Shown piece by piece: positions 6,898-31,331 of a stretch of DNA of 32,000 nucleotides. The notes under the pieces are model-generated. The model worked only from the letters and a program-made list of their open reading frames with translations, made no database searches and was not told the origin of the DNA. A program made the translations under genes and the position numbers. Source of the DNA: Pseudoalteromonas translucida KMM 520 (GTDB taxonomy: Bacteria > Pseudomonadota > Gammaproteobacteria > Enterobacterales > Alteromonadaceae); the NCBI RefSeq assembly GCF_001465295.1, contig NZ_CP011035.1, positions 150,001 through 182,000 of the forward strand. Reading direction: 5' to 3'. Numbering within the stretch: the stretch's first letter is position 1; every line of letters begins with the position of its first letter.

Positions 6898-6907
6898 AGC
6901 TAAAACC

Positions 6908-10153: not shown

Positions 10154-10158
10154 AGCGG

Positions 10159-12880: not shown

Positions 12881-12895
12881 TATTTAGAGATGAGG

Positions 12896-14026: not shown

Positions 14027-14150
14027 GAAACAACCTCAATCGGTGACGGTGGAGATAAAAATTTACGAGGACGAATTGTACACAATTCACTCAGCTTAAT
14101 CATTAAGTAAAACATTATAAGTTTACTGATTAATACCTTACATAATGACT

Positions 14151-14174
14151 AAAAAAGGGCCCGAAAGCCCTTTT
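14151..14174 (-). terminator. rho-independent terminator of ndk (aaaagggc-ccgaaa-gccctttt)
   Basis: GC stem flanked by an A-run on the plus strand, which is a U-tract on the minus strand. It lies 22 nt after the ndk stop. Confidence 0.6.
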
Positions 14175-14195
14175 CAATATGTTAACGAGTTCGAA

Positions 14196-14627
14196 TTAAC
14201 GAGTACGTGAACAAAGCTCTTCGTCAGCGAAGAAATACGCGATTTCGCGAGCAGCAGATTCAACAGCGTCAGAGCCGTGAACAGCGTTTTCGTCGATGCT
14301 GTCAGCGTAGTCTGCACGTAAAGTGCCTGCTAGCGCGTCTGCAGGGTTAGTAGCACCCATGATTTCACGATTTTTAAGAACAGCGTTTTCGCCTTCAAGA
14401 ACGGTAACCATTACTGGGCCAGATGTCATGAAAGATACTAAAGCACCGAAGAAAGGACGTTCGCTGTGTTCAGCGTAGAAGCCTTCAGCTTTCTCTTGTG
14501 AAAGGTGAACCATTTTAGCTGCAACGATTTTAAGGCCAGCAGTTTCGAAACGGTTGTAGATAGCGCCGATGTGGTTTTTAGCAACTGCATCAGGTTTTAC
14601 GATTGAGAAAGTACGTTCTAAAGCCAT
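14196..14627 (-). CDS. ndk: nucleoside-diphosphate kinase
   Basis: [15 protein letters not shown]..., the NAVHGSD active-site His motif, 143 aa. Confidence 0.97.
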
Positions 14628-14770
14628 CTTAATGCTCCAATAATTTTAAGTGAAAGTGTGAATATTAACGGGCGCGAATTATACGCGTTTTAACGTAAAA
14701 ATACTAATTATTATTAATAACCATCTTTGAATATATTTAGCAGGCTTTATTTATATTTTGTTTTGTGCGC

Positions 14771-16393: not shown

Positions 16394-16660
16394 AGTGCTA
16401 AAAAATTATAAAAACAATATTAAAATCTACACCTTAGTCGTTATTTTCTCAAGTGTTAAACGTCTATTAACACATTAACTTGCCTGTTAGCATTTATAAT
16501 AAACATGATTTCTTCATGGCTAGTTACTGCTTTTAACGCTAAATGCTTAGTACATGATGCTGATCAATTATCCTTAAATTAATACTCTATATACTGCCGC
16601 GCTTTGCTATTTAATTATTCATGCAACTGGCTTGTAACCAGTTTTATGTATGGAGCGCTC

Positions 16661-18067
16661 ATGCTATCAACTACTGCTAACTCTTCAAAAAACACGCCGC
16701 CGTTTGCGTTTACCCCTGAACTATTATCGCCCGCGGGCAGCTTAAAAAACATGCGCTATGCCTTTGCCTATGGCGCCGATGCAGTATATGCAGGGCAGCC
16801 ACGCTATAGCTTAAGAGTGCGTAATAATGAGTTTGATCTTGAAACATTAAAAGTAGGCATAGATGAAGCGCATGCACTGAATAAAAAGTTTTATGTGGTA
16901 TCTAATATTGCGCCGCATAACGCTAAAGTTAACTCGTATTTACGCGACATTGAGCCGGTTATTGCTATGCAGCCCGATGCGCTGATCATGTCTGATCCGG
17001 GTTTAATTATGTTAGTGCGTGAAAAATGGCCGACTATGCCTATTCATCTATCGGTACAAGCGAATGCGGTAAATTACGCGAGTGTACAATTTTGGGCAAA
17101 ACAGGGGATTGAGCGAGTTATTTTATCGCGCGAACTGTCGCTAGAAGAGATTGCCGAAATACGCAGGCTTTGCCCAAATACCGAGCTGGAAATATTTGTC
17201 CATGGTGCCTTGTGTATGGCGTATTCTGGACGCTGTTTATTGTCGGGTTACATAAACAAACGCGATCCAAATCAAGGTACATGCACTAATGCTTGTCGTT
17301 GGGATTACGATGTAAAACCGGGCGTTGAAAACGAAACGGGCGAAATGGTACATAAGTTCGATCCTAAAAGTATCATACCTACGCTTGGTGAAGGCGCACC
17401 TAGCAGCGAAATAGTCATGTTAGAGGAGCAAGGTCGACCCGGTGAATATATGCCAGCTTATGAAGATGAGCATGGTACTTATATTATGAACTCAAAAGAT
17501 TTACGAGCAGTACAATATGTAGAGCAGCTTACCCAAATGGGCATACATAGCTTAAAAATAGAAGGGCGCACTAAGTCTTTTTATTATGTAGCACGCACCG
17601 CGCAGGTTTATCGCAAAGCAATTGATGACGCAGTAGCGGGTCGCCCGTTTGATACCAACTTATTTAAAACCTTAGAAAACTTAGCCCACAGAGGCTACAC
17701 CGAAGGCTTTTTAAAGCGCCATGCGCACCAAGACTATCAAAATTATGAATACGGCCATTCGGTATCAACTAAACAACAGTTTGTTGGCGAAGTGCTGGGT
17801 AGAGATGCTAACGGCTTAGTTGATATTGATGTAAAAAATAAGTTTTGTGTTGGCCATTCATTAGAGTTAATGACCCCACAAGATAATATTAGTTTTGTAC
17901 TTGAGCAGATGGAAAATAAAAAAGGTGAAAGTATTAGCGATGCTAAAGGTTCAGGCCATATTGTTAAAATAGCGCTGCCTCAAACGCTTGATTTAGCATA
18001 CGCTATTTTAATGCGTAATCTTGATGAGCATCAAGATACTCGTAATCCGTTTAAGCAAGCCGTTTAG
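16661..18067 (+). CDS. peptidase U32 family protein, YegQ/TrhP-like (tRNA 5-hydroxyuridine formation in E. coli)
   Basis: PELLSPAGSLKNMRYAFAYGADAVYAGQPRYSLRVRNNEF closely resembles the E. coli YegQ N-terminus. I prefer ATG 16661, which has GGAG at 16652-16655, over the TTG at 16604 used in the ORF track. Confidence 0.85.
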   Translation: MLSTTANSSKNTPPFAFTPELLSPAGSLKNMRYAFAYGADAVYAGQPRYSLRVRNNEFDLETLKVGIDEAHALNKKFYVVSNIAPHNAKVNSYLRDIEPVIAMQPDALIMSDPGLIMLVREKWPTMPIHLSVQANAVNYASVQFWAKQGIERVILSRELSLEEIAEIRRLCPNTELEIFVHGALCMAYSGRCLLSGYINKRDPNQGTCTNACRWDYDVKPGVENETGEMVHKFDPKSIIPTLGEGAPSSEIVMLEEQGRPGEYMPAYEDEHGTYIMNSKDLRAVQYVEQLTQMGIHSLKIEGRTKSFYYVARTAQVYRKAIDDAVAGRPFDTNLFKTLENLAHRGYTEGFLKRHAHQDYQNYEYGHSVSTKQQFVGEVLGRDANGLVDIDVKNKFCVGHSLELMTPQDNISFVLEQMENKKGESISDAKGSGHIVKIALPQTLDLAYAILMRNLDEHQDTRNPFKQAV

Positions 18068-18167
18068 AAATTACAGTTTGAATAAACAACACAAAATTAG
18101 TGCCTATAATAATTGATAAAAGCGGCTTTATTAGCGCTATGGTACTAAGGCTCAGTTATTAAAAAAC

Positions 18168-18205
18168 ATACTTTGCAGCGCTTTAGCTAAAGTGCTGCAA
18201 AGTAT
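18168..18205 (-). terminator. 38-bp near-perfect palindrome overlapping the last codons of the LysR gene
   Basis: atactttgcagcg ctttagctaaag tgctgcaaagtat forms a stem of about 19 bp with one G-T pair. On the minus strand it is followed by gtttttt (18161-18167). Confidence 0.55.
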
Positions 18206-19067
18206 AGTCTATTAGTAACCTCACACGATGAGGGATTTGTTTTCTGTCGCGATAAACCATAGAAAAAGGCTGCCCTTCACTTTGCCAGTCTGGAAGAATA
18301 CGCTCAAGCGTTCCAGACTCTATTAATGGCAATGCAATATAATCAGGTATATAACTAATGCCAACACCCGATTCTACGGCATGTTTCATTATTTGAATTT
18401 CATCAACTTCAAGCCTAATGTGTTTGTTTGGCTCAACGTTATACTCTTTATTAGTCAGCTTGTTTTTTAATTGCCACGGGGCTAATCCTAAGCAAATAAC
18501 TTTAGGTTGTTCTTCTAATTGCTCAGGGTGGGTAATTAAATGAGTGGTTTGGTTAGGGCGGCCACATATTATATTATGAGTGAGCTTCAACTCCCTAATA
18601 ACCCAATTATCAATAGCTGGGTTTCGTACTCTAAAGGCAATATCAATGCCTTTATTTTCGATATCAATTAAGTCATTTGAAAAACGTAAATCTAACTGTA
18701 TTTCTGGATATTGCAGTAAAAAATCACAAAAAATAGCGCTTAAAAAATGCTTGCCCATGTAAATTGGCGCAGAAATTCTAATTTTACCTTTTGGTTGCTG
18801 CTTCTCATCAGATAATGCTTGCTCTATGGCGTCTACTTCCTCAAACAGTTTGCAGTAACGAGCGTAATATAGCTCCCCTGTATGGGTTAATGTAACGCGA
18901 TGAGCGTCTCGATTAAGTAAGGTTAACTGTAGAGTTTGCTCCAATAAACGTATTCTGCGGCTTAAGGTTGATAATGATACATTTAGGCTTTCGGATGCTT
19001 TTTTAAAGCTACCTAATTTCACTATAGTGCAAAAATGACGTAAATCATCAAGAGAGTAATTAGGCAT
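18183..19067 (-). CDS. LysR-family transcriptional regulator
   Basis: N-terminal winged HTH (LRHFCTIVKLGSFKKASESLNVSLSTLSRRIRLLEQTL) and a C-terminal LysR substrate-binding fold. 294 aa. Confidence 0.9.
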   Translation of the reverse strand: MPNYSLDDLRHFCTIVKLGSFKKASESLNVSLSTLSRRIRLLEQTLQLTLLNRDAHRVTLTHTGELYYARYCKLFEEVDAIEQALSDEKQQPKGKIRISAPIYMGKHFLSAIFCDFLLQYPEIQLDLRFSNDLIDIENKGIDIAFRVRNPAIDNWVIRELKLTHNIICGRPNQTTHLITHPEQLEEQPKVICLGLAPWQLKNKLTNKEYNVEPNKHIRLEVDEIQIMKHAVESGVGISYIPDYIALPLIESGTLERILPDWQSEGQPFSMVYRDRKQIPHRVRLLIDYTLQHFS

Positions 19068-19167
19068 TATTAAAACCGCCTATCATATCAAAACTTAATA
19101 TTGTTGAAGTTAGGTTTAATCATAACAGCGGTGTTGTTAAATATCATTAGATGTTAAAAGTAGTGAT

Positions 19168-19194
19168 TTATAAAAGCGTTTTTAACTTTTATAA
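19168..19194. promoter_or_regulatory. candidate LysR-type operator (TTATAAAAG-N9-CTTTTATAA dyad containing T-N11-A)
   Basis: Perfect 9-bp inverted repeat with a 9-bp spacer, about 100 bp upstream of the LysR start codon. The AT-rich context raises the chance of coincidence. Confidence 0.3.
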
Positions 19195-20029
19195 ATACGT
19201 TGCGGCGAGTTTATTTTTTAAGGTTTAATTTGCAGCAGTGGCTTGAGCTTTTAAATAAAGCCGTGCCGAGTATATGTTATTGCCATAAATAGCCTATAGC
19301 GACGCATAAATACCAAACACGGATTGCCTTTCGGTTTCTGCCCAGAAGCTTGAGTAGTTTTTTAGCCCATTAGTTTAACCTATACAAATAAAGGCCTTGC
19401 GGCGATTTATATTGATTAAGATCAACAAAGCAACAGAGAAAAATAGGCATAATTCGCGGCTGTAATTTACACCCAAAAGTAAAACGGTGTGTTACGAATG
19501 TGTGCTACGATTTAATGAAAAACAAAGGTTTTGTATTGAACTGGGCTTGTATTAAAAACAGTCAGAAAACATTTTGTTTAACTCTATCTCTATGTTTAAT
19601 AATGATTTTAATTGAAGGGGCTTATGAGTGGCTTTACTTATAAATAGTAAATGCATTAACTGCGATAGTTATAAGGTTTTCAATTAAAGTCTTTAAAAAC
19701 AGGTTGTTACTTTGTCGTGCTATGGCTTGTGCTACGATTTTACGTAACTCGTTAGCACTTGGTTAGTATCTTAAAAGTAACTTAAAAAGGCAAATTGTAT
19801 TAACTAAAAAATTAAAAGCACAAACTTACTAAACAATTTACGGTGGAGATTAATTAGTTTTTTACCACTTCAGTTATTTAAATTTATTTAAGTCAAGCTG
19901 CCTAGTACTACCTAGTTTAAATTTTAAGAGTTTAACGTTCTCTTTGGAATAGCGATTCAATTTTAGGACTCTAAAAGGTATTTTAATTCAGTATTCGTTA
20001 TACAGGATTGAGTTTATCTATTAAGAATA

Positions 20030-20059
20030 TTGATTGATTAAGAGTGAATTAGGTATAAT
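20030..20059 (+). promoter_or_regulatory. candidate sigma70 promoter of the eight-gene operon (TTGATT-N18-TATAAT)
   Basis: The -35 element ttgatt is at 20030-20035 and the consensus -10 tataat is at 20054-20059. GGGAG SD (20072-20076) and TTG start (20084) lie downstream. Confidence 0.4.
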
Positions 20060-20083
20060 TCTCCTTTTACAGGGAGTAGTAAG

Positions 20084-20632
20084 TTGTCATTTCCTCAAGT
20101 ATCTGTCATCGGTAATGCTAAGATAAAATCGTCTCAATTACAGAATATGGCTGAGGCCGTAGGCTTAATTATTAATGATCTTTGCTTTCATCTGGTTTGT
20201 GGTGGTTTGGGTGGCGTAATGGAAGCCAGCTGTAAAGGGCATAAATCAGGGACTGAACCAAGTCAAACAATCGGTATACTTCCATCCTTTAAAGAGAGTA
20301 CAGCAAATAAGTACACAGATATTATTATACCATCTGGGTTAGATATTGGTCGTAATCAGCTAGTTGTCTCTAGCGGTTTTGCTGTTGTCGTTTTGGGTGG
20401 TGGTGCGGGGACTTTAAGTGAGATAGCTCTAGCATCCCAAATAAACAAGCCAATACTCTTGATTAAAGGTTCTGGAGGCTGGGCTGATAAATTGACCGAT
20501 GAGTATTTGGACCAACGTTGTAATTCAAAGCTTTATCATATTAGTAGTTTAGATGAGTTAAGAATAACGCTTCAAAAATTGTCTTTGCTTGAGTCAAAAA
20601 GTGGTTCCATAGACAGTGGCCATAATCGATGA
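20084..20632 (+). CDS. LOG / TIGR00725-like Rossmann-fold protein (SLOG superfamily; putative nucleotide N-glycosidase / phosphoribohydrolase-like)
   Basis: Motifs CGGLGGVMEA...IGILP and GGGAGTLSEI match the GGxxG(L/V)M and (P/G)GGxGTxxE signatures of LOG-family proteins. TTG start lies 7 nt after GGGAG. 182 aa. Confidence 0.65.
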   Translation: MSFPQVSVIGNAKIKSSQLQNMAEAVGLIINDLCFHLVCGGLGGVMEASCKGHKSGTEPSQTIGILPSFKESTANKYTDIIIPSGLDIGRNQLVVSSGFAVVVLGGGAGTLSEIALASQINKPILLIKGSGGWADKLTDEYLDQRCNSKLYHISSLDELRITLQKLSLLESKSGSIDSGHNR

Positions 20633-21597
20633 AATTACTCATCCCAATAAGTTACTTTTTCGGAAGTCCAAAAAGTGAGTTGTGGCAATTAGATACAGAG
20701 ACAAAGAAAAAGAGTTTATTAGCCACCCTACCTTCCTCTGAGAGAGATGTTGCTGGCAAAGGTTTTACCAGTGTTACATGGATTAGCAATGACTTGCTTG
20801 TGGGTTGTGATTTTAATCGTGTATTTATTATTGACCGTAAATTATGCGAGTTAAAAAAAATAAATACAGACGAACAATACAATGATTTACATCATGTTAG
20901 CTTTGATGGTCACTTCATTCATATAGCTAATACAGGGCGTGATTGTATCGATGTTTTAGACAATCAATTACAGCCTGTTAGCCGATTAGAGTTTCTTCCA
21001 ACAGAAGAAATATCATCAAGGATTAAAGGGGAATATAAACCTCAAGGTGATTATTACGATAATGAAGCGATAAAAGTTGATTTTCACCTACGTAAGGTGC
21101 CTGATGCTCTGCATGTCAATCATGTGATCACAGTGGGTAAAGAACTTGATAACAAAGTTATCGTAACAAGTTTTAAAAAAAAATGCTTAATTGACGCTAA
21201 AACTCTAGAGCCACTCAGTAATAAATTACCTGAACAACCCCATGATGGCTTTATCGACAAGAAGTATATTTGGATAACCACTGTTTCAGGGAAAGTGTTT
21301 CGTTCTAAGCTATCGCTACCTTTTAATTTTGAATTGTTTTTTGATCTATTTCGGGTAGCAAAGTTCAAAGGGTGGTGTCGAGGTTTATTAGTTGCTAATG
21401 ATGCTTTATTTATAGCGGTCACTGCTATTCATAAGGAAACTAATCGGACAAACTGGCTTAATAGTCCAGTAAAGAATACTCGCACGGGAGTTTATCAGAT
21501 CAATTTAGCTTCATTGGATATTGAACACTTCTATGATTTTAGCCACACAAACGGTTCCCGTATATTTTCATTAGTCAGTGATAATTTTGATGGATAA
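20629..21597 (+). CDS. hypothetical protein, probably beta-rich/propeller-like (faint resemblance to DUF4915/TIGR03032-type proteins)
   Basis: 322-aa ORF. Its ATG overlaps the upstream TGA (ATGA at 20629-20632). Repeated hydrophobic beta-strand-like blocks. FKGWCRGLLVANDALFIAVTAIHKE resembles the G(F/W)xRGLxF...S..RE block I recall from TIGR03032. Not verifiable here. Confidence 0.5.
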   Translation: MKLLIPISYFFGSPKSELWQLDTETKKKSLLATLPSSERDVAGKGFTSVTWISNDLLVGCDFNRVFIIDRKLCELKKINTDEQYNDLHHVSFDGHFIHIANTGRDCIDVLDNQLQPVSRLEFLPTEEISSRIKGEYKPQGDYYDNEAIKVDFHLRKVPDALHVNHVITVGKELDNKVIVTSFKKKCLIDAKTLEPLSNKLPEQPHDGFIDKKYIWITTVSGKVFRSKLSLPFNFELFFDLFRVAKFKGWCRGLLVANDALFIAVTAIHKETNRTNWLNSPVKNTRTGVYQINLASLDIEHFYDFSHTNGSRIFSLVSDNFDG

Positions 21598-22387
21598 GAA
21601 ACCAAGGATTTACATGTTTCATCGTGTTCTTAAAAATTACGATGAAAAGAACTATTACTATCAGCGACAAACAGGCATTAGCTGGAAGAAGTTCATCGAA
21701 CTGCTTGATACTATAGAGAAAAAAGGCTGGAAAACTAAGCCAATTTCTGCTTTGGCGAAAGGATATACACATAACGATGTATTTATTACTTTCGATGACG
21801 GATATAGGGATAATATTTGTGCATTTGATGAATTAATTAATCGTGGAATGATTGCTACAGTTTACCCTGTTAAAGATTTTGTTTTAGATGGTTTTTCTCC
21901 GATTGATGATATGGCTCTTCACTTGATGTCGACACCGAATGTACCTAAAGACCTTAGTCTATCATTGCTCGGTGGGCGATTAAAAAGAATATTACGAGGC
22001 ATAACAGCCTCGAGATATAGGTATCTCCGACAACGTTTGTTTGGCATAGATGTGGATGCGGATTCTACCCATTTATTTATGCAGGAGCATCATCTAAAAC
22101 TGTACAATAGCCAAGGAATTGAACTGGGTATTCACGGGTGTAGCCACAGAGCATTTACCCAACTTTCTCCAAGTGAGCTAAATAAAGAGTTAACTGAAAA
22201 TTATAATTGGATCAGAGGATTGGGATGTAGAGAATCGATGTCTATTTGCTTCCCTCATGGTAAAAATAATAAGAAAGTAATTGAGCAAAGCCAGCTATTT
22301 GGCTTAATTCATTTAGGTGTCGACTGTGAGACATTTTACCCATCAGTTTTAAGGAGAATACATATTACGGAAGATTATTGTGGGTGA
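21590..22387 (+). CDS. polysaccharide deacetylase family protein (NodB homology / CE4)
   Basis: YMFHRV..., FITFDDGYRDN (the TFDDG metal/catalytic motif), and LGIHGCSH (His motif). ATG 21590 overlaps the upstream TAA (21595-21597). The track start, GTG 21578, is also possible. Confidence 0.75.
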   Translation: MDKKPRIYMFHRVLKNYDEKNYYYQRQTGISWKKFIELLDTIEKKGWKTKPISALAKGYTHNDVFITFDDGYRDNICAFDELINRGMIATVYPVKDFVLDGFSPIDDMALHLMSTPNVPKDLSLSLLGGRLKRILRGITASRYRYLRQRLFGIDVDADSTHLFMQEHHLKLYNSQGIELGIHGCSHRAFTQLSPSELNKELTENYNWIRGLGCRESMSICFPHGKNNKKVIEQSQLFGLIHLGVDCETFYPSVLRRIHITEDYCG

Positions 22388-23060
22388 ACTTAATGCTAAG
22401 CTTTGCGCATTGCTCAAGAATCAATTAGAGACTTTTCCATTTCACAATTTAGGGCAGTTATTGGGGAAGAAGGTTATTAATGGGGGGACTTGTTTTGATC
22501 ACGCACTAAGCTTGCGCGCTCATATAACTAAAATGGGGCTTAGCGCTACATTACATGAGGCTGAGGTTTGCATGACAGGTTTAAACTCACATCGTTTGAT
22601 CCGAGTTGAATCTTCAGACAAGGTTAGCTTTTTAGATTCTGGCACGGGCTGGCCAACTATATATCAGGCTCATACTTGCGATATCTATCGAGAGTATACA
22701 TCAGCAGGAATACGCTTTCGAATTGTTAAAGAGTCAAACAAGCTTCTTGTCAAACGACACGATGGTCGACAATGGCGTGATATGAACCGTATTGCATTAG
22801 TCGCTCAAAATGAAGAGATTATATTATCCAAATACCCTAACAGGTATCTCCAACAACTGCCTTACAGCCAAGAACTTCGGTTTTGCTGGCTAATGAATGA
22901 AAAGTTTTATCGAATTACAGGTTTCTGTTTAGCAGTATATGAAGCAGGAAAAAATACTCAAAAATTCAGTCTAACACCGATAGAGCTTTTGAGTTTTGTC
23001 CAGAGCAGCTTTCCCGAATTGATTTCGGACTTAAAAATATATCTAGAGAGTATTAGTTGA
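22380..23060 (+). CDS. arylamine N-acetyltransferase (NAT)-like Cys-His-Asp acyltransferase/amide synthase
   Basis: FPFHNL resembles the NAT PFENL motif. NGGTCFDHAL resembles RGGYCFELN with the catalytic Cys. SHRLIRVE carries a candidate His and FLDSGTGWP resembles DVGFG with the Asp. GTG start overlaps the upstream stop. At 226 aa it is shorter than classical NATs. Confidence 0.55.
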   Translation: MGELNAKLCALLKNQLETFPFHNLGQLLGKKVINGGTCFDHALSLRAHITKMGLSATLHEAEVCMTGLNSHRLIRVESSDKVSFLDSGTGWPTIYQAHTCDIYREYTSAGIRFRIVKESNKLLVKRHDGRQWRDMNRIALVAQNEEIILSKYPNRYLQQLPYSQELRFCWLMNEKFYRITGFCLAVYEAGKNTQKFSLTPIELLSFVQSSFPELISDLKIYLESIS

Positions 23061-24544
23061 TGTGCGGGTTTGTTGTAAGTGTCACTGAAGGACAATCTAA
23101 TTTAAATAAGAAAGTAGGAAAGGATACTCTATCTCGGGGCGAAGACCATTCTAGCTTAGAAACTATTCATTTTAATGGAATACCTATACATTTTGAATTT
23201 TCGCATTTATTTATAACTTCTCCCCAAGTTGTTCAACCACTACAAAGTATGTCGAAAATTTTAGTACTGAATGGTGAGATATATAATTATCAAGAATTGG
23301 CTGAGATACTTGGTCTCGAATCAAATAAGTTTAATGATGTAGGTATTTTTTTTGAGTATATAGAGCGTTACGGTTTGACTCAGGCCATGACGATGGCAAA
23401 TGGAATGTACTCTGGTGTTCTTTTCGATAAATCAACGGGAGATTTTAGAGTTTTTACAGATCATGTTGGTAAAAAGCCTTTGCTCGTTTGGAATAGTAGT
23501 ATCGGATGGCATATAGGAACTGGCGTTGATACTAATTATATAGATGCATACACTAATACGTTAGATGTAATCTCCCCTGGAGTATCAAAGTTTGATATAA
23601 AAACTGGGGTAGTATGCAAAGAATACCTCCATCAATACACTGTGACCAATAAACGAAGATTTGTTGATATTATAGAAAGTGCTATAGCACTTCGAATTCC
23701 TAAGGATATCCCATTCGCTGTAGCTTTAAGTGGTGGGCTAGATAGTTCGATTATTGCTTATATTTTAGAGACAAGATTAAGCAAAAGTGCAAGATATTAC
23801 GTCGTGGCTGACAGTTATCCCGATTCAGTTTTGACGTTATTAGAACATCTAAAGGTTTGTCCTAGTCGTGTCGTTTTAATTAAGCCACCGACACAAAGTG
23901 AGCTCTTAGGATTAATTAAAAAAACATGTAAAATTACAAAAAGCTACAACCCTTCAATTATATCAAATGGACTAGCAACATTATTATTAAGTAGGGCTGT
24001 ACAAGAAGACGGTATCCGCGTTTTGTTATCAGGTGAAGGTGCAGATGAGTATTTCTGTGGTTATCAAGGAATGTATAATGGTCGTAATGACCCTGAGAAA
24101 ATGAGAGCTTGTTTGATTGAAAACCTCCATTACACGGAATTGAGACGCTTAGATCTTATTACTGCCAGCCATAGTATAGAGGCTCGTTGCCCATTTTTAG
24201 ATAATCGCGTCACTCAGTTTGCATTAGCACATGACGTTCAAGATCTTTGCGACATTTCTTTGAACGTGGGAAAAACAATACTAAGAGATACATTTAAACA
24301 TGTATTACCCAACTCAATAATTCATGCTCCTAAAGAGCCTTTCGATATTACCTCAGGTTTGCAAAAAATGGTTATAGATGAATTAAAGAAAATATCTACG
24401 ACAGAAAGAACAGCATTAAGATCCATTTTTGAACAAATTATGGATAACACTTCTATAGCTAATCATCATTACTTCTCCCATTACCCAACTTTTGACACGA
24501 TGATTGAACGACGTGAGCTTAAATACAAGCAGAGGGATATATGA
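23060..24544 (+). CDS. asparagine synthetase (AsnB)-family amidotransferase/amide ligase
   Basis: MCGF N-terminus (Cys2 nucleophile), LNGEIYNYQEL, PP-loop ALSGGLDSSI, LLSGEGADEYFCGY and EARCPFLD. ATG 23060 overlaps the upstream TGA (TGATG). The track start TTG 23057 would put an extra Met before Met-Cys. Confidence 0.85.
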   Translation: MCGFVVSVTEGQSNLNKKVGKDTLSRGEDHSSLETIHFNGIPIHFEFSHLFITSPQVVQPLQSMSKILVLNGEIYNYQELAEILGLESNKFNDVGIFFEYIERYGLTQAMTMANGMYSGVLFDKSTGDFRVFTDHVGKKPLLVWNSSIGWHIGTGVDTNYIDAYTNTLDVISPGVSKFDIKTGVVCKEYLHQYTVTNKRRFVDIIESAIALRIPKDIPFAVALSGGLDSSIIAYILETRLSKSARYYVVADSYPDSVLTLLEHLKVCPSRVVLIKPPTQSELLGLIKKTCKITKSYNPSIISNGLATLLLSRAVQEDGIRVLLSGEGADEYFCGYQGMYNGRNDPEKMRACLIENLHYTELRRLDLITASHSIEARCPFLDNRVTQFALAHDVQDLCDISLNVGKTILRDTFKHVLPNSIIHAPKEPFDITSGLQKMVIDELKKISTTERTALRSIFEQIMDNTSIANHHYFSHYPTFDTMIERRELKYKQRDI

Positions 24545-24549
24545 ACGAT
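24542..24549. repeat. target-site duplication, left copy (TGAACGAT)
   Basis: Identical 8-mer at 26955-26962, immediately outside both IS termini. An 8-bp duplication is the IS66-family norm. Confidence 0.9.
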
Positions 24550-24573
24550 GTAAGCGTCTGAGCAAATGCGTCT
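24550..24573. repeat. IS66 terminal inverted repeat (tnpC-proximal end)
   Basis: Begins GTAAGCG, as is typical for IS66-family ends. About 21 of 25 positions match the other end, with one indel. It contains the tnpC stop codon. Confidence 0.8.
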
Positions 24574-26134
24574 AGCCTTGATTAACATTCCAAGGTAGCA
24601 AGTGCTCTACACTTTCAGGCTTTTTAGCAAGCTCATCTAGGCAGGTTTGCAAATAGTTGTCGACCAACAGTCCGTTCGCTTTCGCGGTTTCAATAATACT
24701 ATAGAGCACGGCGCTAGCCGTTGCACCCCGCGCGGTATTGGAGAATAACCAGTTTTTTCTGCCAATCACAAACGGTTTCACAGCCCGCTCAGCGCGATTG
24801 TTATCTATATTTATGCGACCATCTTTTAAATAGGTGATGAGCTTATGTTCTTGGTTACACCAATACGTAATCGCTTCACCAAGTTTACTTTTCGGTGGCA
24901 CTTTATCTTTATTTTCGATAATCCAATGGTGAAGTTTATCGATGATGGGTTTTGAACTTTCCTGCCGTGCTTGATACGTTTCTGCGGCCGTTTTGTCTTT
25001 TAAGCTTGCCTCAATGCCGTAGAGTTTTCTAATAAGACTTAAGGCAACATCGGCTTTGCCGGTTTTGTTTTTCGTTTGCACCGTTTTCGCATCAATGAAT
25101 TTTCGACGTGCATGCGCCATACAACCTGCCAATATTGCATCTGTTTTTCCGTACGCTGCATAACCATCGACTTGCAGGTAACCGTCATAGTCACCAAGGT
25201 AATCAACTACACAAGCTGCGGCACGAGAGTTGTGATAATCATAGAGGATAATATTTGGCAAACTATTGGCGGCCACCGAATCGCTACCACAACAATACAC
25301 CCACATGTAACTGCTGCTATTATCGGCCTTAATCACCTTTAAGGGCGTTTCGTCGGCATGGAGCACCGCTTGACTAAGCAATGCTGCTTTTAGCTCGTTA
25401 ACTAATGGCATCAGTAATTCACTACACCGTATTATCCAATCTGACATGGTTTTACGACTCAGCTCAATACCATACTCATTGAACATTTTTTCTTGCCTAT
25501 ATAGCGGCAACCCATATTGATATTTGGCGCTGATGATTTGACTCAGCAAACTACTGGTGGCAATGCCTTTAGGAATGGGGGTTGCTGGAACAGGTGCAAC
25601 TTTTATAGAATTTTCTGTGCCAGTTTGCTCACACCTTTTACAGGCATATTTCGGTCGAACTGTCTCTATCACTTTGATGTACGCAGGAACAAACTCAAGT
25701 TTTTCACTACGAGCTTCACCAATTTTATGCAGCTTACCTTGGCAACAATCACACACTTTTTCATCAATGGACAAATCAATTGTCACCACTTTTCGAGGTA
25801 ATTCTTTTGGCAGTGGCTTGCGCGTCGGTTTGTTTTTAATTGTGACCTTACTGTGACTATCAGCCGCAGCTAATAACGTTTTATCGGCCTCATCAATGAT
25901 TTCTTCCGCTTCATTGAAGGTTTCCCCCGCCCCCGGGAGTTGCTCGGAGCTTTTACCAAACTGTTTACGCTTGGCAATTTCATAGCGTTCAATAAACTGA
26001 TTAATTTGAATGGCTTGTTCACTGATGATTTTATCTTTTTTCGCTAACTCTTGGGTAGTTTCAGCCTGCAACTCAAGCAACATTTGCTTGAGTTGTTCTG
26101 GGTCGTCAGGGAGTGAGTTAGTATCAATTTTCAT
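24572..26134 (-). CDS. tnpC: IS66-family transposase (TnpC/Orf3)
   Basis: 520 aa. N-terminal coiled coil/leucine zipper, zinc-finger-like CDCCQGKLHKIG...CKRCE, a central DDE region (HADETPL..., VDGYAAY) and a conserved C-terminus. Confidence 0.92.
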   Translation of the reverse strand: MKIDTNSLPDDPEQLKQMLLELQAETTQELAKKDKIISEQAIQINQFIERYEIAKRKQFGKSSEQLPGAGETFNEAEEIIDEADKTLLAAADSHSKVTIKNKPTRKPLPKELPRKVVTIDLSIDEKVCDCCQGKLHKIGEARSEKLEFVPAYIKVIETVRPKYACKRCEQTGTENSIKVAPVPATPIPKGIATSSLLSQIISAKYQYGLPLYRQEKMFNEYGIELSRKTMSDWIIRCSELLMPLVNELKAALLSQAVLHADETPLKVIKADNSSSYMWVYCCGSDSVAANSLPNIILYDYHNSRAAACVVDYLGDYDGYLQVDGYAAYGKTDAILAGCMAHARRKFIDAKTVQTKNKTGKADVALSLIRKLYGIEASLKDKTAAETYQARQESSKPIIDKLHHWIIENKDKVPPKSKLGEAITYWCNQEHKLITYLKDGRINIDNNRAERAVKPFVIGRKNWLFSNTARGATASAVLYSIIETAKANGLLVDNYLQTCLDELAKKPESVEHLLPWNVNQG

Positions 26135-26230
26135 CCATCGAGTTTAGCAAGAACAGACAGATGATTCTGCTTTGTAACGCAAATAGAATAAGGACTTGCG
26201 TACACGATCGTTGACTGATAAAAGATCTAG

Positions 26231-26578
26231 TTAGATCGGTGACTGATAGTGCAGCGGTTCATGGCCAAGCACGTCATATCCAGATAACAACCAATCCAGT
26301 TGTTGATAGGTTAATTCAAATTCCTGGCTCGATAGTTTACTTGGCCATTTGAATTTTTGCTTTTCAAGTCGTTTATACCAAAGCGCGAACCCTGTTTTAT
26401 CCCAGTATAGAATTTTCAGCTTATCTTTGGCCTTGTTACAAAATACAAACAACGTACCGGTATAGGCATCGCGAACAAGCTCATCTTCAACAATACTCAC
26501 TAAGCCATTAATACTTTTTCGAAAGTCGACAAAATCCCGATGCAGAAAAACCTCTGACGGCTCAACAAACATTTTCAT
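26231..26578 (-). CDS. tnpB: IS66 Orf2 (TnpB) accessory protein
   Basis: 115 aa. DFRKSINGL...LFVFCNK..DKLKILYWDK.GF.LWYKRLEK.KF.WP is the characteristic IS66 TnpB sequence. Confidence 0.9.
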   Translation of the reverse strand: MKMFVEPSEVFLHRDFVDFRKSINGLVSIVEDELVRDAYTGTLFVFCNKAKDKLKILYWDKTGFALWYKRLEKQKFKWPSKLSSQEFELTYQQLDWLLSGYDVLGHEPLHYQSPI

Positions 26579-26874
26579 TGAACAAACTCGCGTAGTAACT
26601 GGCTTAAATACGTTGCAGAGGTTGTGGCTGGCAAACTAACGTTTGCCTTGCCAACAGTTAACGTGATGGATGGTTGTTCATCAACTATTTCGACTTGCTG
26701 TGTAATTTTGGCGCGAACGAAATTATTCGATGATAGGCCGAGTTTCTTTCTTACCGCATAAAAGCTAGTCATTGATAATTGATGTTGCCGGCAATAATCA
26801 ATGATGGTTAAACCACTTGATTGTTGTTCATGGATGATGGTTTGCCATTGCTCTGGGCTGCGCATAATTCTCAT
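26575..26874 (-). CDS. tnpA: IS66 Orf1 (TnpA), small HTH protein
   Basis: 99 aa. W..II.EQ..SGLTI..YCRQH.LS...FY.W..K motif. Its stop overlaps the tnpB start (ATGA at 26575-26578). Confidence 0.8.
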   Translation of the reverse strand: MRIMRSPEQWQTIIHEQQSSGLTIIDYCRQHQLSMTSFYAVRKKLGLSSNNFVRAKITQQVEIVDEQPSITLTVGKANVSLPATTSATYLSQLLREFVQ

Positions 26875-26890
26875 AAGTTACTCCAAATAA

Positions 26891-28204
26891 TTGTTTGGTT
26901 GTAACTTACTTAAGTTGAGATTAATTTGTCAGACGCAATTTGCCGGACGCTCACTGAACGATAATCAAGTGGTTGCAGTCGTTGGGCTAGGGTATGTCGG
27001 GTATCCGCTTGCAATAGCATTTGGTCAGCATATCCAAACAGTAGGTTTTGACATAAACGAAACTAGAATCTCTGAATTACATGAAAGTAATGATCGCACC
27101 AATGAAAGCGATATTAAGTTAGTTGAAAGTGCTGAGCATTTAACTTTGTCTAATGATCTAGAGTGTATTCGAAGAGCGAATATATATATTGTCACTACAC
27201 CTACTCCAGTTGATAAGGCATACCAACCAGAGTTAAGTGCGGTATTGAATGCTGCAAAGATGGTTGGCTCTGTGATTTCAACTAACGATATTGTTGTCCT
27301 AGAATCTACAGTATATCCTGGTGTTACAGAGGGAGTGTTTGCTTCTGAAATTGAAAAAACAAGTGGATTGCTTGCAAATATTGACTTTCAGCTAGGGTAC
27401 AGTCCTGAGCGGATTAATCCAGGAGATGAGCTTCATTGCTTACAACATATAGTAAAGGTTGTTTCTGCCACAAATACATCTACTTTAGAAATATTATCTC
27501 AATTATATGAACTTATAGTTCCTGCTGGAGTGTTGAAAGCTGAGTCAATAAGAACAGCTGAGTTATCTAAGTTAATAGAAAACACCCAGCGTGATGTTAA
27601 TATTGCATTTATAAACGAAATGTATCAGCTATCGGACAAGCTGAAATTAGATTTTAACAAGGTATTAGAATGCGCCAGTAGTAAGTGGAATTTTCTAGAC
27701 TTTAAACCTGGGTTAGTTGGTGGACACTGCGTTGCTGTTGATCCGTATTACTTAATTCATTCTCAGGTTATGAATGGAGTTGCACCTCGTATAACAAATA
27801 CAGCACGGCAAGTTAACGGGGATATGGTTACTTACGTTGCAAATACATTTTTGAAAAAGTTAATTAGGGCTGGCCTTTCACTACCTTCCACAAGAATATT
27901 AATCTTGGGTGTGAGTTTTAAACCCAACTGCCCTGACGTTAGAAACTCTAAACATTTTGAAGTTATAAGAGAATTGATAGATTTTGGAGCAAAGCCACTT
28001 ATTTACGACCCAGTTGTTAAGTGGGAAGATACCCAAAACTGCATTGTTGAAGAACAAATGCCTACAGGCCCTTTTGATGCGATATTGTTGCTTGTACCTC
28101 ATGATGAAATTGTTCGCGATTTACTACTCAAGGGGGCCTCTCTGATACATGAAAACACCATCTTCTTCTCTTTAGACTCACAATATACAGATTTACTAAA
28201 ATGA
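26891..28204 (+). CDS. nucleotide-sugar 6-dehydrogenase (UDP-GlcNAc/ManNAc/GalNAc dehydrogenase type, TviB/WbpO/WecC-like); native start removed by the IS66 insertion
   Basis: Rossmann VAVVGLGYVGYPLAIAF, catalytic-Cys block GGHCVAVDPYYL and the ELSKLIENTQRDVNIAF block. The first 21 codons of the track ORF (TTG 26891) are IS66 end sequence. The ancestral start is ATG 24541, leaving ATG-AAC-GAT left of the IS. At the right junction the equivalent codon is CTG (26954-26956). The next in-frame GTG is at 26969. Confidence 0.85.
   Translation: MFGCNLLKLRLICQTQFAGRSLNDNQVVAVVGLGYVGYPLAIAFGQHIQTVGFDINETRISELHESNDRTNESDIKLVESAEHLTLSNDLECIRRANIYIVTTPTPVDKAYQPELSAVLNAAKMVGSVISTNDIVVLESTVYPGVTEGVFASEIEKTSGLLANIDFQLGYSPERINPGDELHCLQHIVKVVSATNTSTLEILSQLYELIVPAGVLKAESIRTAELSKLIENTQRDVNIAFINEMYQLSDKLKLDFNKVLECASSKWNFLDFKPGLVGGHCVAVDPYYLIHSQVMNGVAPRITNTARQVNGDMVTYVANTFLKKLIRAGLSLPSTRILILGVSFKPNCPDVRNSKHFEVIRELIDFGAKPLIYDPVVKWEDTQNCIVEEQMPTGPFDAILLLVPHDEIVRDLLLKGASLIHENTIFFSLDSQYTDLLK
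26931..26954. repeat. IS66 terminal inverted repeat (tnpA-proximal end)
   Basis: The reverse complement matches 24550-24573 (see the mobile_element entry). Confidence 0.8.
26955..26962. repeat. target-site duplication, right copy (TGAACGAT)
   Basis: Identical to 24542-24549. Confidence 0.9.
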
Positions 28205-29043
28205 CTATAGAATTAACAGAATATAATAAATTCATCTCTATGGCCTCAATTGTTGGGGATTCCCTAGGTAATAAAAATGCTATTGATTTTGTCACTAGCT
28301 TCCTTGAAGGTTTAGGCTTCGATATTCGGATTTCAAATACTAAACATACAGCTCAGCCAACAATAATAGCGCACTATTCAGGACGATTATGTGATAAAAA
28401 AATAGTCATTTATGGTCATTATGATGTTGCACTAGTGAAAAGTGAGAATAATTGGCTCAGTGAAAACCCATTCTTATTAAAACGTATCAACGGTCGTATT
28501 TATGGACGAGGAATAGCCGATAACAAGGGGCCTCTGTTATCCCGGATGCTCGCTATGAAATCATTAATATCATCGAAAAAAGCAATCCCTGAAATTATGT
28601 GGTTAATTCAAGGTGAGGAAGAAATTATGCATGGGAATAGAGTTGCCTATGATATTTTTAAGCATGAGATAAGTTCATTTGGTGCAAATACTTACATTGA
28701 GGAAACAGGATTTAATAATTTAGATACAGGATCTCAAATTGCATTTCTATGGTCGCCTTCTCTGACTGATTTACAGTTATCTTCGTGGCATGATTTACTA
28801 AATCACAGCTTGGATAATCCGAATATCGAATATCGTCATCTAAATAAGCTAAATGGAATCAAAGCTTGTCCTCTTCTAGCCAATTTGCCCAAAGACTCTG
28901 TTTATATCGGTTTTGGTCCTAATGATCGCTTGCATAATATCCATCAAGACAATGAATCATTAGATGAGAGTAATCTTTTAAAGCACCAAAAACAATTTGA
29001 AAATTTTTTAGCAAATTATGCGTCGTATAGCCATGCAGTCTAA
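28201..29043 (+). CDS. M20-family metallohydrolase-like protein (ArgE/DapE/ACY1 type), short form apparently lacking the lid/dimerisation domain
   Basis: IYGHYDVA...W...PF...NGRIYGRGIADNKGP, IQGEEEI and C-terminal LHNIHQDNESLD correspond to the M20 metal-ligand blocks. It is only 280 aa. ATGA overlap with the upstream gene at 28201-28204. Confidence 0.65.
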   Translation: MTIELTEYNKFISMASIVGDSLGNKNAIDFVTSFLEGLGFDIRISNTKHTAQPTIIAHYSGRLCDKKIVIYGHYDVALVKSENNWLSENPFLLKRINGRIYGRGIADNKGPLLSRMLAMKSLISSKKAIPEIMWLIQGEEEIMHGNRVAYDIFKHEISSFGANTYIEETGFNNLDTGSQIAFLWSPSLTDLQLSSWHDLLNHSLDNPNIEYRHLNKLNGIKACPLLANLPKDSVYIGFGPNDRLHNIHQDNESLDESNLLKHQKQFENFLANYASYSHAV

Positions 29044-30280
29044 CAACATCATTAACGTGGTATTGGCCAGTGCTGATATAGATGTGGCAAACAGTCTGTT
29101 GAAAAGCATGCATCAAGCGTTACCTAGTTTTGAGATTAAAGCGTCCATCTTATTATTTGGTATAACAGAACCAAGAAAAATTTATCAGTTTTGTCGTCCA
29201 GTTGAAATAATAGATATAGTTACGTACTACCCACCTATTGTGGATAGTCGAAATATCTGCCAAGCACACCTTCGTCGTAAAATGAACGAATTTGGGGGAA
29301 TAGGATTTATACTTGATGATGATTTATCTTGGACACTACCTGAAAATGAATTTATTACTGTGCTTGAAAAATTGAAAAAAGCGGGCTGTGATATGGCTTT
29401 TAGTGCGCTATCAGGTGATTCACCTATCCCAAAGGAATATACTCGAACAAGCCCCTTACTCGATGTTTTGATAGCCATTGCAGTCCAATGTAATGACTCT
29501 AAGGCTATGAAAATAAAAGAGTATGTTACAAAGGTAGATATATCGAAAAAAAGCGAAAGTAATATTAATACTCATCATGACTTTTATACTTTTACCCATA
29601 AAGAATTTCATAAATATGATGTGGATATAGCAACTATCAATTGGCATGATTTCATCGATCGATTAGTAAAGGGTAAATCTACAACCCGAACTACACCAAC
29701 ACCAATTACAATAATGCCAGCAAAAGGAAGAGAGCGGGGTGGTGCAACACTTATACTAAATGTTGATGTATTACTTTGTAAAAATGATTCAATGCGCTAT
29801 TTGAATTTATATAGTCGCCGCAGTGATATGATTATGGCAACGGATGCTGCGAATTATAACTTTAAACTATTTAATACCCCGCCTATGTTAAAACACCTTA
29901 GAGATGAAGCATTTGATACCCATGACAGTAAAAAGTTAATAGGCGATATCCTTGGGTATGCACTTGTTGAATCTAAAGAAGGAGCTAATTTTTGCGCGAA
30001 AAAATTTGCGAAAAACGTATCTCAACGAATTGAACATACAAAATTTTTACTTATGGAATCATCAAAAATGATGGAGTTACTAGATGTATGGTTAAAAAAT
30101 AACAATTATATTGAATTGGATGTAAGTAGCTTGGTTAAATCCATGATTGCAGAAAATGAGAAAACTTACTTAGCGCTTACATCCATTGACTTAGGAGTTG
30201 TTAATCAGTCTTTCAACACATTTATTTATAATAGAATTAACTATTTAAAGTCTGATGAAAGTACTGAGCTAGCTTGTTAG
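29033..30280 (+). CDS. hypothetical protein; N-terminal region has GT-A-like features (beta-strand start plus DxD), C-terminal ~250 aa unknown
   Basis: The start INVVLASADID... and GFILDDDLSW about 100 aa in resemble a GT-A glycosyltransferase DxD core. This is weak, by-eye evidence. ATG 29033 or ATG 29018 overlaps the upstream TAA (29041-29043). Confidence 0.5.
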   Translation: MQSNNIINVVLASADIDVANSLLKSMHQALPSFEIKASILLFGITEPRKIYQFCRPVEIIDIVTYYPPIVDSRNICQAHLRRKMNEFGGIGFILDDDLSWTLPENEFITVLEKLKKAGCDMAFSALSGDSPIPKEYTRTSPLLDVLIAIAVQCNDSKAMKIKEYVTKVDISKKSESNINTHHDFYTFTHKEFHKYDVDIATINWHDFIDRLVKGKSTTRTTPTPITIMPAKGRERGGATLILNVDVLLCKNDSMRYLNLYSRRSDMIMATDAANYNFKLFNTPPMLKHLRDEAFDTHDSKKLIGDILGYALVESKEGANFCAKKFAKNVSQRIEHTKFLLMESSKMMELLDVWLKNNNYIELDVSSLVKSMIAENEKTYLALTSIDLGVVNQSFNTFIYNRINYLKSDESTELAC

Positions 30281-30402
30281 TATTTCGTTCCTCAGAATAA
30301 ATGCCTTTTAGGGATCATTAAGCTGCATTCTAGGCCTTAAAGTGACTTATTGGTCACTTTAACTACCGTCGGTTATATCAAAAAAGTTAAGTGTTTTTTT
30401 AC

Positions 30403-30489
30403 TTAATCTACTTTCTTAGCTTGTTTAATAAGTTTAATTAGAATTATCGTCAACACAGCAGCTGGTAATAGCCATATAAAATCACTCAT
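30403..30489 (-). CDS. candidate small hydrophobic protein, 28 aa (MSDFIWLLPAAVLTIILIKLIKQAKKVD)
   Basis: ATG preceded by GAGGG with a 6-nt spacer (minus strand: attGAGGGttagaaATG). One predicted TM helix and a Lys-rich tail. Too short for the ORF track. There is no homology evidence. Confidence 0.3.
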   Translation of the reverse strand: MSDFIWLLPAAVLTIILIKLIKQAKKVD

Positions 30490-30633
30490 TTCTAACCCTC
30501 AATATTTGGAATAATACTCCAACCTTAATGTTTTTGGTGTGTTTTGCAAATTTAAGTCGTTTATCTATTACCTTTCAATTTTTCTCCTGACTTATGCCTA
30601 GTTAGCTTTAGGACAAATTAACTAGGAAAAATC

Positions 30634-31026
30634 ATGAAAGATCAAAAATCACCGTTTATACGCCAATATGTACGCGCTAGTAAATCCCCCTGGGAGGATG
30701 CTTCCACCATTTTGCTATTAGCTGATGTTGTTGATAAGCAAGAACTTGAACTGGGCTTCACCAATTACATTTATTTACACCGAGATAGCGTGGGGTGTGT
30801 GCTGGGTATTAGTATTTCTCAACAGTTACTAGCTGCTAATCCTGAGTTCTCAGAGCGGTATTTGGAGGGTATTGAGATGTATGCCTTTTTACTCATACAC
30901 ATTGAAGGCATAACAAACTTCTGCAGTTTATTTACTGCAGAATTTGAGCAACTATTTATGCTAAAACCAAATGAGTATTTTGCAGCTGCAGAACGCCATT
31001 GGTTAGATATACTAGAGAATACCTAA
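30634..31026 (+). CDS. hypothetical protein (130 aa)
   Basis: ATG preceded by AGGAAAAATC. Clean ORF followed 8 nt later by a strong terminator. No domain recognised. Confidence 0.55.
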   Translation: MKDQKSPFIRQYVRASKSPWEDASTILLLADVVDKQELELGFTNYIYLHRDSVGCVLGISISQQLLAANPEFSERYLEGIEMYAFLLIHIEGITNFCSLFTAEFEQLFMLKPNEYFAAAERHWLDILENT

Positions 31027-31034
31027 AAACCTTT

Positions 31035-31060
31035 AGCGAACCACGTGGTTCGCTTTTTTA
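31035..31060 (+). terminator. rho-independent terminator (agcgaaccac/gtggttcgct plus TTTTTT)
   Basis: Perfect 20-bp palindrome followed by a T6 run, immediately after the stop of 30634..31026. Confidence 0.8.
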
Positions 31061-31331
31061 TTTCCCTGCGACGCTACTAGTTATATGTATAGAGCCAAAA
31101 ATAAGTTACACACTGCATGTTCATTACTCCAAAAAATTGCACCGAGCCTGGCGCTAAACAGGCTTACCTACCTGAAGAGCCTTTGTGGTGATTCACTGCA
31201 TTTAAATGAATATTCATACTCTGTATGACGTACAGGGTTATGTAGGGAGAAAACAATATAGCGATTGTTTTGGCGGCAGGGCCCGAATGCGCGGTCTTAG
31301 TTACCTAATGTAGACAGGTTAAAAATAAAAA

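Follow-up and report, generated by a model that had tools for sequence, protein, structure and literature searches.

The 32,000-nucleotide stretch of Pseudoalteromonas translucida KMM 520 analysed here (contig NZ_CP011035.1, positions 150,001 to 182,000; hereafter the window) carries an operon of eight genes on the plus strand, at 20084-30280, interrupted by an insertion sequence (IS). An initial annotation of this DNA had described the operon as a single, probably horizontally acquired unit of tailoring enzymes. The genes, which we name g1 to g8, and the features that belong with them are as follows:

20009..30289, plus strand: minimal mobile module, the extent common to three Pseudoalteromonas-like copies (blastn)
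20030..20059, plus strand: candidate sigma-70 promoter, TTGATT-18-TATAAT (consensus match only, 10/12)
20084..20632, plus strand: g1, LOG-like protein of SLOG cluster 4 / TIGR00725, 182 amino acids (aa) (PF18306, E 1.2e-31)
20629..21597, plus strand: g2, beta-propeller of a small unnamed family, 322 aa (AF2 model, Foldseek)
21590..22387, plus strand: g3, CE4 deacetylase or deformylase, predicted cytoplasmic, 265 aa (PF01522, E 6e-12)
22380..23060, plus strand: g4, NAT-fold acyltransferase, 226 aa (PF00797, E 1e-10)
23060..24544, plus strand: g5, AsnB-like glutamine-dependent amidotransferase, 494 aa (Asn_synthase and GATase_7)
24541..24549, plus strand: 5' stub of g6 (ATG and first codons) with the target-site duplication; the gene is intact in copies L001, L014 and L019
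24550..26953, minus strand: IS66-family insertion sequence (tnpA, tnpB, transposase) with imperfect terminal inverted repeats
26954..28204, plus strand: remainder of g6, nucleotide-sugar 6-dehydrogenase of the UDP-N-acetylhexosamine (UDP-HexNAc) type (TIGR03026)
28201..29043, plus strand: g7, M20 metallohydrolase, catalytic domain only, 280 aa (PF01546, E 1.6e-16)
29033..30280, plus strand: g8, modelled as a divergent soluble GT-A-fold glycosyltransferase, 415 aa (AF2 model)

Neighbouring genes overlap at all seven junctions, each of which lies where the initial annotation had put it:

20629-20632, plus strand: g1/g2, ATGA
21590-21597, plus strand: g2/g3, ATGGATAA, with ATG at 21590 against TAA at 21595-21597
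22380-22387, plus strand: g3/g4, GTGGGTGA, with GTG at 22380 against TGA at 22385-22387
23057-23062, plus strand: g4/g5, TTGATG, in which TGA (23058-60) and ATG (23060) have one base in common
24541-24544, plus strand: g5/g6, ATGA
28201-28204, plus strand: g6/g7, ATGA
29033 to 29043, plus strand: g7/g8, with ATG at 29033 against TAA at 29041-43

The ATG at 23060 gives g5 the N-terminal Met-Cys that amidotransferases of the N-terminal nucleophile type require. Upstream, the operon is separated from a LysR gene by 1 kb of AT-rich, non-coding DNA (19068-20083; GC content, 31%) that has no Rfam match and no tRNA. The last 75 to 457 bp of this stretch travel with the module in other strains, and the promoter candidate lies inside the shared part. 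A GGGAG ribosome-binding site stands 8 nt 5' of the TTG start of g1. The initial annotation had placed the operon behind a TATAAT promoter candidate. This is the top-scoring sigma-70-like site in the 12 kb scanned (19000-31100), but such sites are no commoner than in shuffled sequence, so it is only a candidate. Beyond the 3' end of the operon lie an open reading frame (ORF) of 130 aa without a Pfam match (30634-31026) and, after it, a strong bidirectional terminator-like hairpin at 31035-31054, AGCGAACCACGTGGTTCGCT, with runs of T on both sides.

Pfam and NCBIfam profile scans bore out the families to which the eight genes had been assigned, and all eight proteins lack membrane segments and signal peptides. 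The g1 protein scores 109.9 bits against PF18306 (cut-off, 26.3) and narrowly passes TIGR00725 (107.1 bits; cut-off, 106.9), and it falls far short of the cytokinin LOG equivalog (23.9 bits; cut-off, 300). Its motifs CGGLGGVM and R90...GGGAGTLSE113 are invariant among 15 orthologues, and its relatives in the PDB are 1rcu, the molybdenum cofactor (Moco) carrier protein 2iz5, and LOG enzymes. The g1 protein is a predicted nucleotide N-glycosidase that would release the base.

The g3 protein conserves the TFDDGY and HxxxH motifs, found no match in a PDB sequence search, and has an alternative GTG start at 21578. The g4 protein scores 42.3 bits against PF00797 (cut-off, 22.8), matches the NAT structures 2bsz and 4nv7 in the PDB, and keeps the triad GGTC38, H71RL and D86 across 12 orthologues, as expected of an arylamine N-acetyltransferase. 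In g5, the N-terminal Met-Cys supplies the Cys nucleophile, and an SGGLDSS PP-loop is present. The g6 protein passes the general nucleotide-sugar dehydrogenase model TIGR03026 (338.6 bits; cut-off, 189.8). Its closest model is TviB (2e-107), but at 359.6 bits against a cut-off of 592 it is not a TviB equivalog. The g7 protein lacks the lid/dimerization domain, and its PDB matches are restricted to catalytic halves; the metal-ligand motifs HYD, ADNKG, GEEE and H.IH are conserved in 23 orthologues.

Two of the eight proteins belong to small families. The g2 protein has only a weak Pfam match to DUF4915, to whose C-terminus it is related. Its AF2 model is confident (pLDDT, 94), and Foldseek returned generic propellers only, without a specific structural neighbour. 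The family comprises 39 clusters in 5.8 billion proteins. Its alignment is too variable for a pattern scan; however, the invariant polar residues include N85, D86, H88, D159, H162, N164, H205, D206, C250 and R251, and this set of His, Asp, Asn, Cys and Arg suggests an enzyme. The g8 protein matches no Pfam or NCBIfam model, the Pfam GT2 family included, and has an alternative ATG at 29018. Its AF2 model (pLDDT, 89) has top Foldseek matches that are all GT-A enzymes, at probability 1.0. Those in the PDB (E ~1e-6) are of the GT2 type: hyaluronan synthase, BcsA, WrtF, TarP and the nucleoside glycosyltransferase AvpGT (9jn3). Invariant residues comprise D95-D96-D97, H182-D183, GDxPIPKEYTR, HHDYY, GRERGG and SRRSDM. 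With both the fold and a DxD motif, g8 models as a new soluble GT-A glycosyltransferase. Its family holds 57 clusters among 5.8 billion proteins, every one annotated as hypothetical; a profile search recovered 28 representatives at E <= 1e-30 among 1.84 billion, and there were no relatives in plasmid, phage or IMG/VR collections.

The order of these genes is conserved well beyond the window. Genome and metagenome scans together with contig look-ups yielded about 16 independent loci in which the module reads SLOG, propeller, CE4, NAT, AsnB or PhyH, optional dehydrogenase, M20 and glycosyltransferase, with synteny that extends from 98% down to about 35% identity. This gives firm backing to the earlier claim that the genes form one unit and excludes the idea that housekeeping genes came together here by chance. 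Among the hosts are Gammaproteobacteria, SAR324, Phenylobacterium and Sulfurovaceae. The core set consists of SLOG, propeller, CE4, NAT, M20 and glycosyltransferase, and the variable parts are the AsnB or PhyH gene and the dehydrogenase. Variant A, with AsnB, is that of the window, of Oceanospirillales XeTr1 (L008) and of Endozoicomonas; Colwellia and an Osedax symbiont have it without the dehydrogenase. Arsukibacterium also lacks the dehydrogenase and, unlike the usual order, has AsnB and NAT as a divergently transcribed pair upstream. In variant B, found in Marinobacter and in SAR324 and Phenylobacterium metagenome-assembled genomes, a PhyH dioxygenase takes the AsnB position.

Some of these clusters have further genes close by. 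Those of the Colwellia type, without the dehydrogenase, carry an extra 411-aa gene directly 3' of g8 (L003, 3500-4732; L020, 11263-12495), whose product matches nothing in Pfam or, by sequence, in the PDB. In Marinobacter-like loci, an ADP-ribosylglycohydrolase gene lies about 0.9 kb 5' of the PhyH-variant cluster (L011, 2864-3955; L017, 3098-4018), and may belong either to the module or to a neighbouring system.

The most divergent locus, L028 (RCMZ01001197.1, 700-17970), has a rearranged module: SLOG, CE4, g8, a hexapeptide acyltransferase, M20, AsnB and NAT, and no propeller. The surrounding genes encode a dehydrogenase, an epimerase, Wzx, GT2, a 437-aa protein without a Pfam match, GT4, a Bac_transf initiating transferase and PGM/PMM; the module sits between GT4 and the initiating transferase and directly adjoins an MqsRA toxin-antitoxin pair. 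In the other 15 of the 16 contexts, the neighbourhood of the module is free of flippase, polymerase, initiating-transferase and exporter genes, and no exporter is conserved across the clusters. The initial annotation had held that the operon is not a standard polysaccharide locus, and that homologous clusters consistently embedded in O-antigen or capsule loci would speak against this. The claim stands for the window and for 15 of 16 contexts and fails for L028, which is embedded in a Wzx-type locus; such embedding is thus found once, not consistently.

A third variant (C) of what is, judging by its genes, the same pathway occurs at L033 (GCA_900180405.1, FXLE01000008.1, 5170-13185). Here a gene for a 1054-aa protein, P0117, unites a g8-like domain, GTP cyclohydrolase II, NADAR and NAT in one chain. 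It is followed by PhyH, a 216-aa protein, CE4, and orthologues of g2 (45% identity, E 3e-102) and g6 (43.5% identity, E 1.6e-121). In this variant, GTP cyclohydrolase II and NADAR stand where the LOG-like protein stands in the window. The cluster has no SLOG gene and no M20 gene, and its flanks are housekeeping genes. By eye, the 216-aa protein is kinase-like, with an HRD-like DLQPKN motif and a DIG motif.

Fusions link the module components in other organisms as well. In the profile search, remote g8 homologues appear as domains within large multidomain proteins. Using profile models built from the cluster families, and counting representative proteins, we found the g8-like domain fused to SLOG cluster 4 in P0114, P0119, P0127, P0173 and P0192, and to a g3-like CE4 domain in P0139, P0156, P0157, P0204 and P0206. 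Both sets are proteins of 1,500-2,200 aa from uncultured organisms, and in the first set the SLOG cluster 4 domain is C-terminal. Pfam confirmed P0114, with GT2, methyltransferase and LDcluster4 domains.

The module moves as a unit, its own promoter region included. Three Pseudoalteromonas-like copies, 95-100% identical, occupy three unrelated contexts: the copy in the window adjoins LysR and a U32 peptidase, that in L014 adjoins a transposase, a HipA fragment and HsdM, and that in L019 adjoins a P4-type integrase. In blastn comparisons with the window, homology begins at 20009 in L019 and spans 19627-30289 in L014; in L001 it begins at 19904, where the L001 contig ends. Copies that share these borders in unrelated places are stronger evidence for horizontal acquisition, as the initial annotation had proposed, than the low GC content it relied on. 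With the IS removed, the operon has 36.2% GC against 40.8% upstream (window positions 1-19067). By gene, the values are 36.6 +/- 2.1% in the operon and 41.5 +/- 2.4% in the neighbours (Mann-Whitney p = 1.8e-4), and GC at third codon positions is 29.1% against 33.9% (p = 0.003). The operon is indeed lower than its neighbours, but the gap is smaller than the earlier hand counts had implied: a drop of about 5 points, real but modest.

Comparison of the window with L001, a metagenome copy, also shows an uneven spread of differences. Only 1 of 4646 bases differs 5' of the IS, and 55 differences in 3,638 aligned bases lie 3' of it, clustered over a stretch that starts at the end of g7 and runs past g8 (28750-30592). 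This clustering at the glycosyltransferase end suggests a recombination tract or allele exchange.

In KMM 520 itself, the operon has been disrupted. The IS carries three IS66-type ORFs, all on the minus strand within 24550-26953, and lies between the two copies of a perfect 8-bp target duplication, TGAACGAT, at 24542-24549 and 26954-26961. Its membership of the IS66 family follows from tnpA, tnpB, a DDE transposase, the terminal inverted repeats and the 8-bp duplication, and an IS66 copy on a plasmid of P. translucida TAC125 matches it at 98.7% identity. Insertion took place three codons into the dehydrogenase gene. It took the start codon of g6 and parted g6-g8 from the promoter region, an effect that the initial annotation had left out; the IS probably blocks expression of g6-g8, and the pathway is therefore probably impaired in this strain. 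Since all reading frames are still intact, the insertion looks recent. The dehydrogenase that the initial annotation had restored by removing the IS exists in nature: the IS-free operon copies L001 (99.98%), L014 and L019 encode a 416-aa dehydrogenase, and in them its ATG and the AsnB stop overlap. Within the end of the IS, an in-frame TTG at 26891 is a possible fusion start for g6.

Outside the operon and the IS, the window is occupied by genes that include der, bamB, hisS, ispG, rodZ, pilW, rlmN, ndk, the U32 peptidase and LysR. We scanned the 18 larger ORFs among them, leaving out three small upstream ORFs, and found no initiating transferase, flippase, polymerase, ABC exporter or further glycosyltransferase. 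The absence of O-antigen or capsule assembly genes noted initially was thus confirmed for these 18 neighbours and the eight operon proteins. Note that the PilW-like ORF (11019-12749) encodes 576 aa, of which the PilW model matches only residues 8-244, leaving the C-terminal 330 residues without an assignment.

Reading roles, substrates and an order of steps into the families, motifs, synteny and fusions described above, we propose a cytoplasmic pathway in which an amino-substituted base is freed from a nucleotide and coupled to a tailored hexosaminuronic sugar. We hold this proposal tentatively, with somewhat less than even confidence. The main pointer to this chemistry is the gene content of L033. 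In the scheme, g1 would cleave the N-glycosidic bond of a ribonucleotide to give the free amino-substituted base; the substrate might be what GTP cyclohydrolase II produces in the riboflavin pathway, or simply a nucleoside monophosphate. The g6 dehydrogenase would oxidize UDP-HexNAc to the uronic acid, and g8 would join the sugar to the base or a base derivative. Tailoring would follow from the other enzymes: g3 may strip an N-acetyl or N-formyl group, g4 may acylate an arylamine-type nitrogen, and g5 would turn the uronate carboxyl into a carboxamide, a step for which variants B and C would substitute PhyH hydroxylation. Hydrolysis of an amide, possibly a deprotection, would fall to g7, and the g2 propeller is given no step. 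That all eight proteins are soluble, with no exporter conserved alongside them, agrees with a cytoplasmic location.

Several observations weigh against this pathway. The relatives of g1 within TIGR00725 include the non-catalytic Moco carrier 2iz5, so ligand binding instead of hydrolysis is a possible role for g1. Several clusters do without the dehydrogenase. In P0117, the g8-like domain is remote (23% identity, profile E 7e-15), and the large fusions (P0114 and the related P0109, P0111 and P0112) carry GT2 and methyltransferase domains typical of glycan assembly. The placement of the L028 module inside a Wzx-type locus fits a polysaccharide role better. Furthermore, Rfam scans upstream of the operon and of seven sister loci gave no riboswitch or regulatory RNA that would point to a ligand; the sole match was an unrelated signal recognition particle RNA.

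The L028 locus and the GT2 and methyltransferase domains of the large fusions would suit a mobile surface-glycan decoration cassette. Here the product would be an unusual hexosaminuronamide, which g8 would attach to a lipid-linked O-antigen, capsule or core intermediate at the cytoplasmic face, changing the serotype and masking phage receptors. Pairing of a UDP-HexNAc dehydrogenase with an AsnB-like amidotransferase, as in WbpO/WbpS, is a known O-antigen motif, and g6 is closest to TviB. TarP, a prophage-borne teichoic-acid glycosyltransferase, is among the Foldseek neighbours of g8. At L031, a carbamoyltransferase and a glycosyltransferase-like gene precede the SLOG gene, and the location of modules in variable and defence islands would fit receptor masking. 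We judge the cassette a serious alternative, although a somewhat unlikely one. The 15 contexts free of assembly and export genes speak against it, and the LOG-like protein, the NAT fold, and GTP cyclohydrolase II with NADAR have no known role in glycan synthesis. Even at L028, the MqsRA pair right beside the module suggests insertion into a recombination hot spot.

Defence islands raise the further idea of an undescribed intracellular anti-phage system, which might produce a pro-toxin or an antiviral analogue of a nucleoside or base, or modify the nucleotide pool or nucleic acids during infection. By raw count, recognized defence genes lie within 10 kb in seven of 16 contexts. In L025, BREX PglZ and BrxL stand directly upstream, and L015 has BREX genes together with type I-C cas genes. 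Arsukibacterium has BrxR with an Ssp-like set, L014 a type I restriction-modification gene, L008 a type IV restriction enzyme (PADLOC, E 1.5e-103) and L016 GajB-like helicases, and a NERD+UvrD protein and PDC-M26A occur in L011 and L017. Integrases or transposases stand near the module in six contexts, and SLOG and NADAR domains recur in conflict systems (PMC9503650). However, anything carried on mobile islands, whatever its function, would show such a bias, and nine contexts have no defence gene, the flanks of L033 being housekeeping genes. None of the eight proteins matched a PADLOC-DB 2.0 model, candidate systems included; the only hit was LmuA at E 0.006, with no stretch that passes on its own. 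The operon contains no sensor, nuclease or other usual effector, and the cluster is absent from the phage, plasmid and IMG/VR collections. We regard an anti-phage system of this kind as quite improbable.

The enzymes could also be arranged to make a hexopyranosyl-nucleoside antibiotic for secretion, like blasticidin S or gougerotin, but we consider this very unlikely. A nucleotide hydrolase would free a base, which would be coupled with a UDP-uronic acid and made into a carboxamide, with acetylation and deacetylation as self-protection. The operon does bring together a hydrolase-like g1, a UDP-sugar 6-dehydrogenase, a glycosyltransferase, an amidotransferase, an acetyltransferase and two deacylases, and AvpGT is among the structural matches of g8. 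For blasticidin S, cytosylglucuronic acid chemistry is established (PMC5572114). Against an antibiotic stand the absence of an exporter or resistance pump conserved in any cluster, and the hosts, which are marine Gram-negatives with small island-borne copies. Moreover, the nucleotide hydrolases and cytosylglucuronic acid synthases of the blasticidin S and gougerotin pathways belong to other families than the proteins found here.

We also dismissed three other candidates. A pathway like those for mycothiol or bacillithiol (transferase, deacetylase, ligase, acetyltransferase) draws on different enzyme families, and no evidence points to a thiol; a role in modifying peptidoglycan precursors finds no support in the genomic contexts; and a phage-encoded DNA hypermodification system is contradicted by the lack of viral copies.

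The proposed base-sugar pathway can also be extended to a form of chemical immunity, although we find this extension quite doubtful. On defence islands, a host nucleotide would be turned into a glycosylated aminopyrimidine or purine, with the LOG-like or NADAR enzyme supplying the base. The compound would be an antiviral antimetabolite or a pro-toxin kept in store, and would parallel in bacteria what vicine, a defence glucoside, is in plants.

A search of 8 million papers on TIGR00725, DUF4915, PF18306 and the gene combination, with the 2015 SLOG classification outside its reach, found no description of such a system. If the proposed pathway is correct, the module would link nucleotide-derived base chemistry to tailored amino-uronic sugars and would give the SLOG cluster 4 / TIGR00725 family, of which we detected about 1,680 relatives, its first concrete biochemical role. 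It would add two protein families not known before, one of GT-A glycosyltransferases and one of propeller enzymes, and would represent a type of biosynthetic cluster missed by current gene-cluster and defence-system tools. Its recurrence beside BREX, CRISPR, restriction and Ssp-like genes makes receptor masking and chemical defence reasonable roles to consider for the module in marine bacteria. The system is compact, at 8 kb and eight soluble proteins, and its IS-free sequence is available in L001 and L014.

The operon belongs to none of the closest known systems. Its logic resembles that of the proposed vicine and convicine pathway of faba bean, in which a ribosylamino-pyrimidine nucleotide yields a free aminopyrimidine that is tailored and glycosylated. 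The proposed vicine route runs through GTP cyclohydrolase II, hydrolysis, deamination and glucosylation, and the COG3236 enzyme is an N-glycosidase that hydrolyses the GTP cyclohydrolase II product (bioRxiv 10.1101/2020.02.26.966523). L033 is like this route in having GTP cyclohydrolase II, NADAR and a glycosyltransferase-like domain, all fused. We take COG3236 to be the NADAR family. The window, in contrast, has neither GTP cyclohydrolase II nor NADAR, and has the LOG-like SLOG cluster 4 protein instead. The vicine donor is UDP-glucose, whereas that of the operon is probably a UDP-HexNAc uronic acid, and CE4, NAT, AsnB or PhyH, M20 and the propeller are additions to the vicine route. The plant glucosyltransferase is unlikely to be related to g8.

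Similar partial likenesses hold for the other systems. LOG phosphoribohydrolases share with g1 the fold, the GGxGxM and PGGxGTxxE-type motifs, and the predicted release of a base from a nucleoside 5'-phosphate; however, g1 falls in the SLOG cluster 4 / TIGR00725 branch, which also holds the non-catalytic Moco carrier, and not with cytokinin LOG. O-antigen and Vi uronamide loci likewise place a TviB-like dehydrogenase beside an AsnB-like amidotransferase, but in our module this pair is variable rather than core, and the operon and 15 of 16 contexts lack the flippase, polymerase, initiating transferase and chain-length regulator. Blasticidin S and gougerotin clusters follow the scheme proposed here in obtaining a base from a nucleotide, coupling a UDP-uronic acid, forming a carboxamide and acylating nitrogen. 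The operon differs from them in its hydrolase and transferase families, in having no exporter and in its Gram-negative marine hosts. Last, the modelled g8 shares the GT-A fold and DxD motif with TarP, WrtF and AvpGT, yet stands apart from them at 9-10% identity and TM-scores of 0.35-0.5, with invariant motifs of its own and a C-terminal helical bundle.

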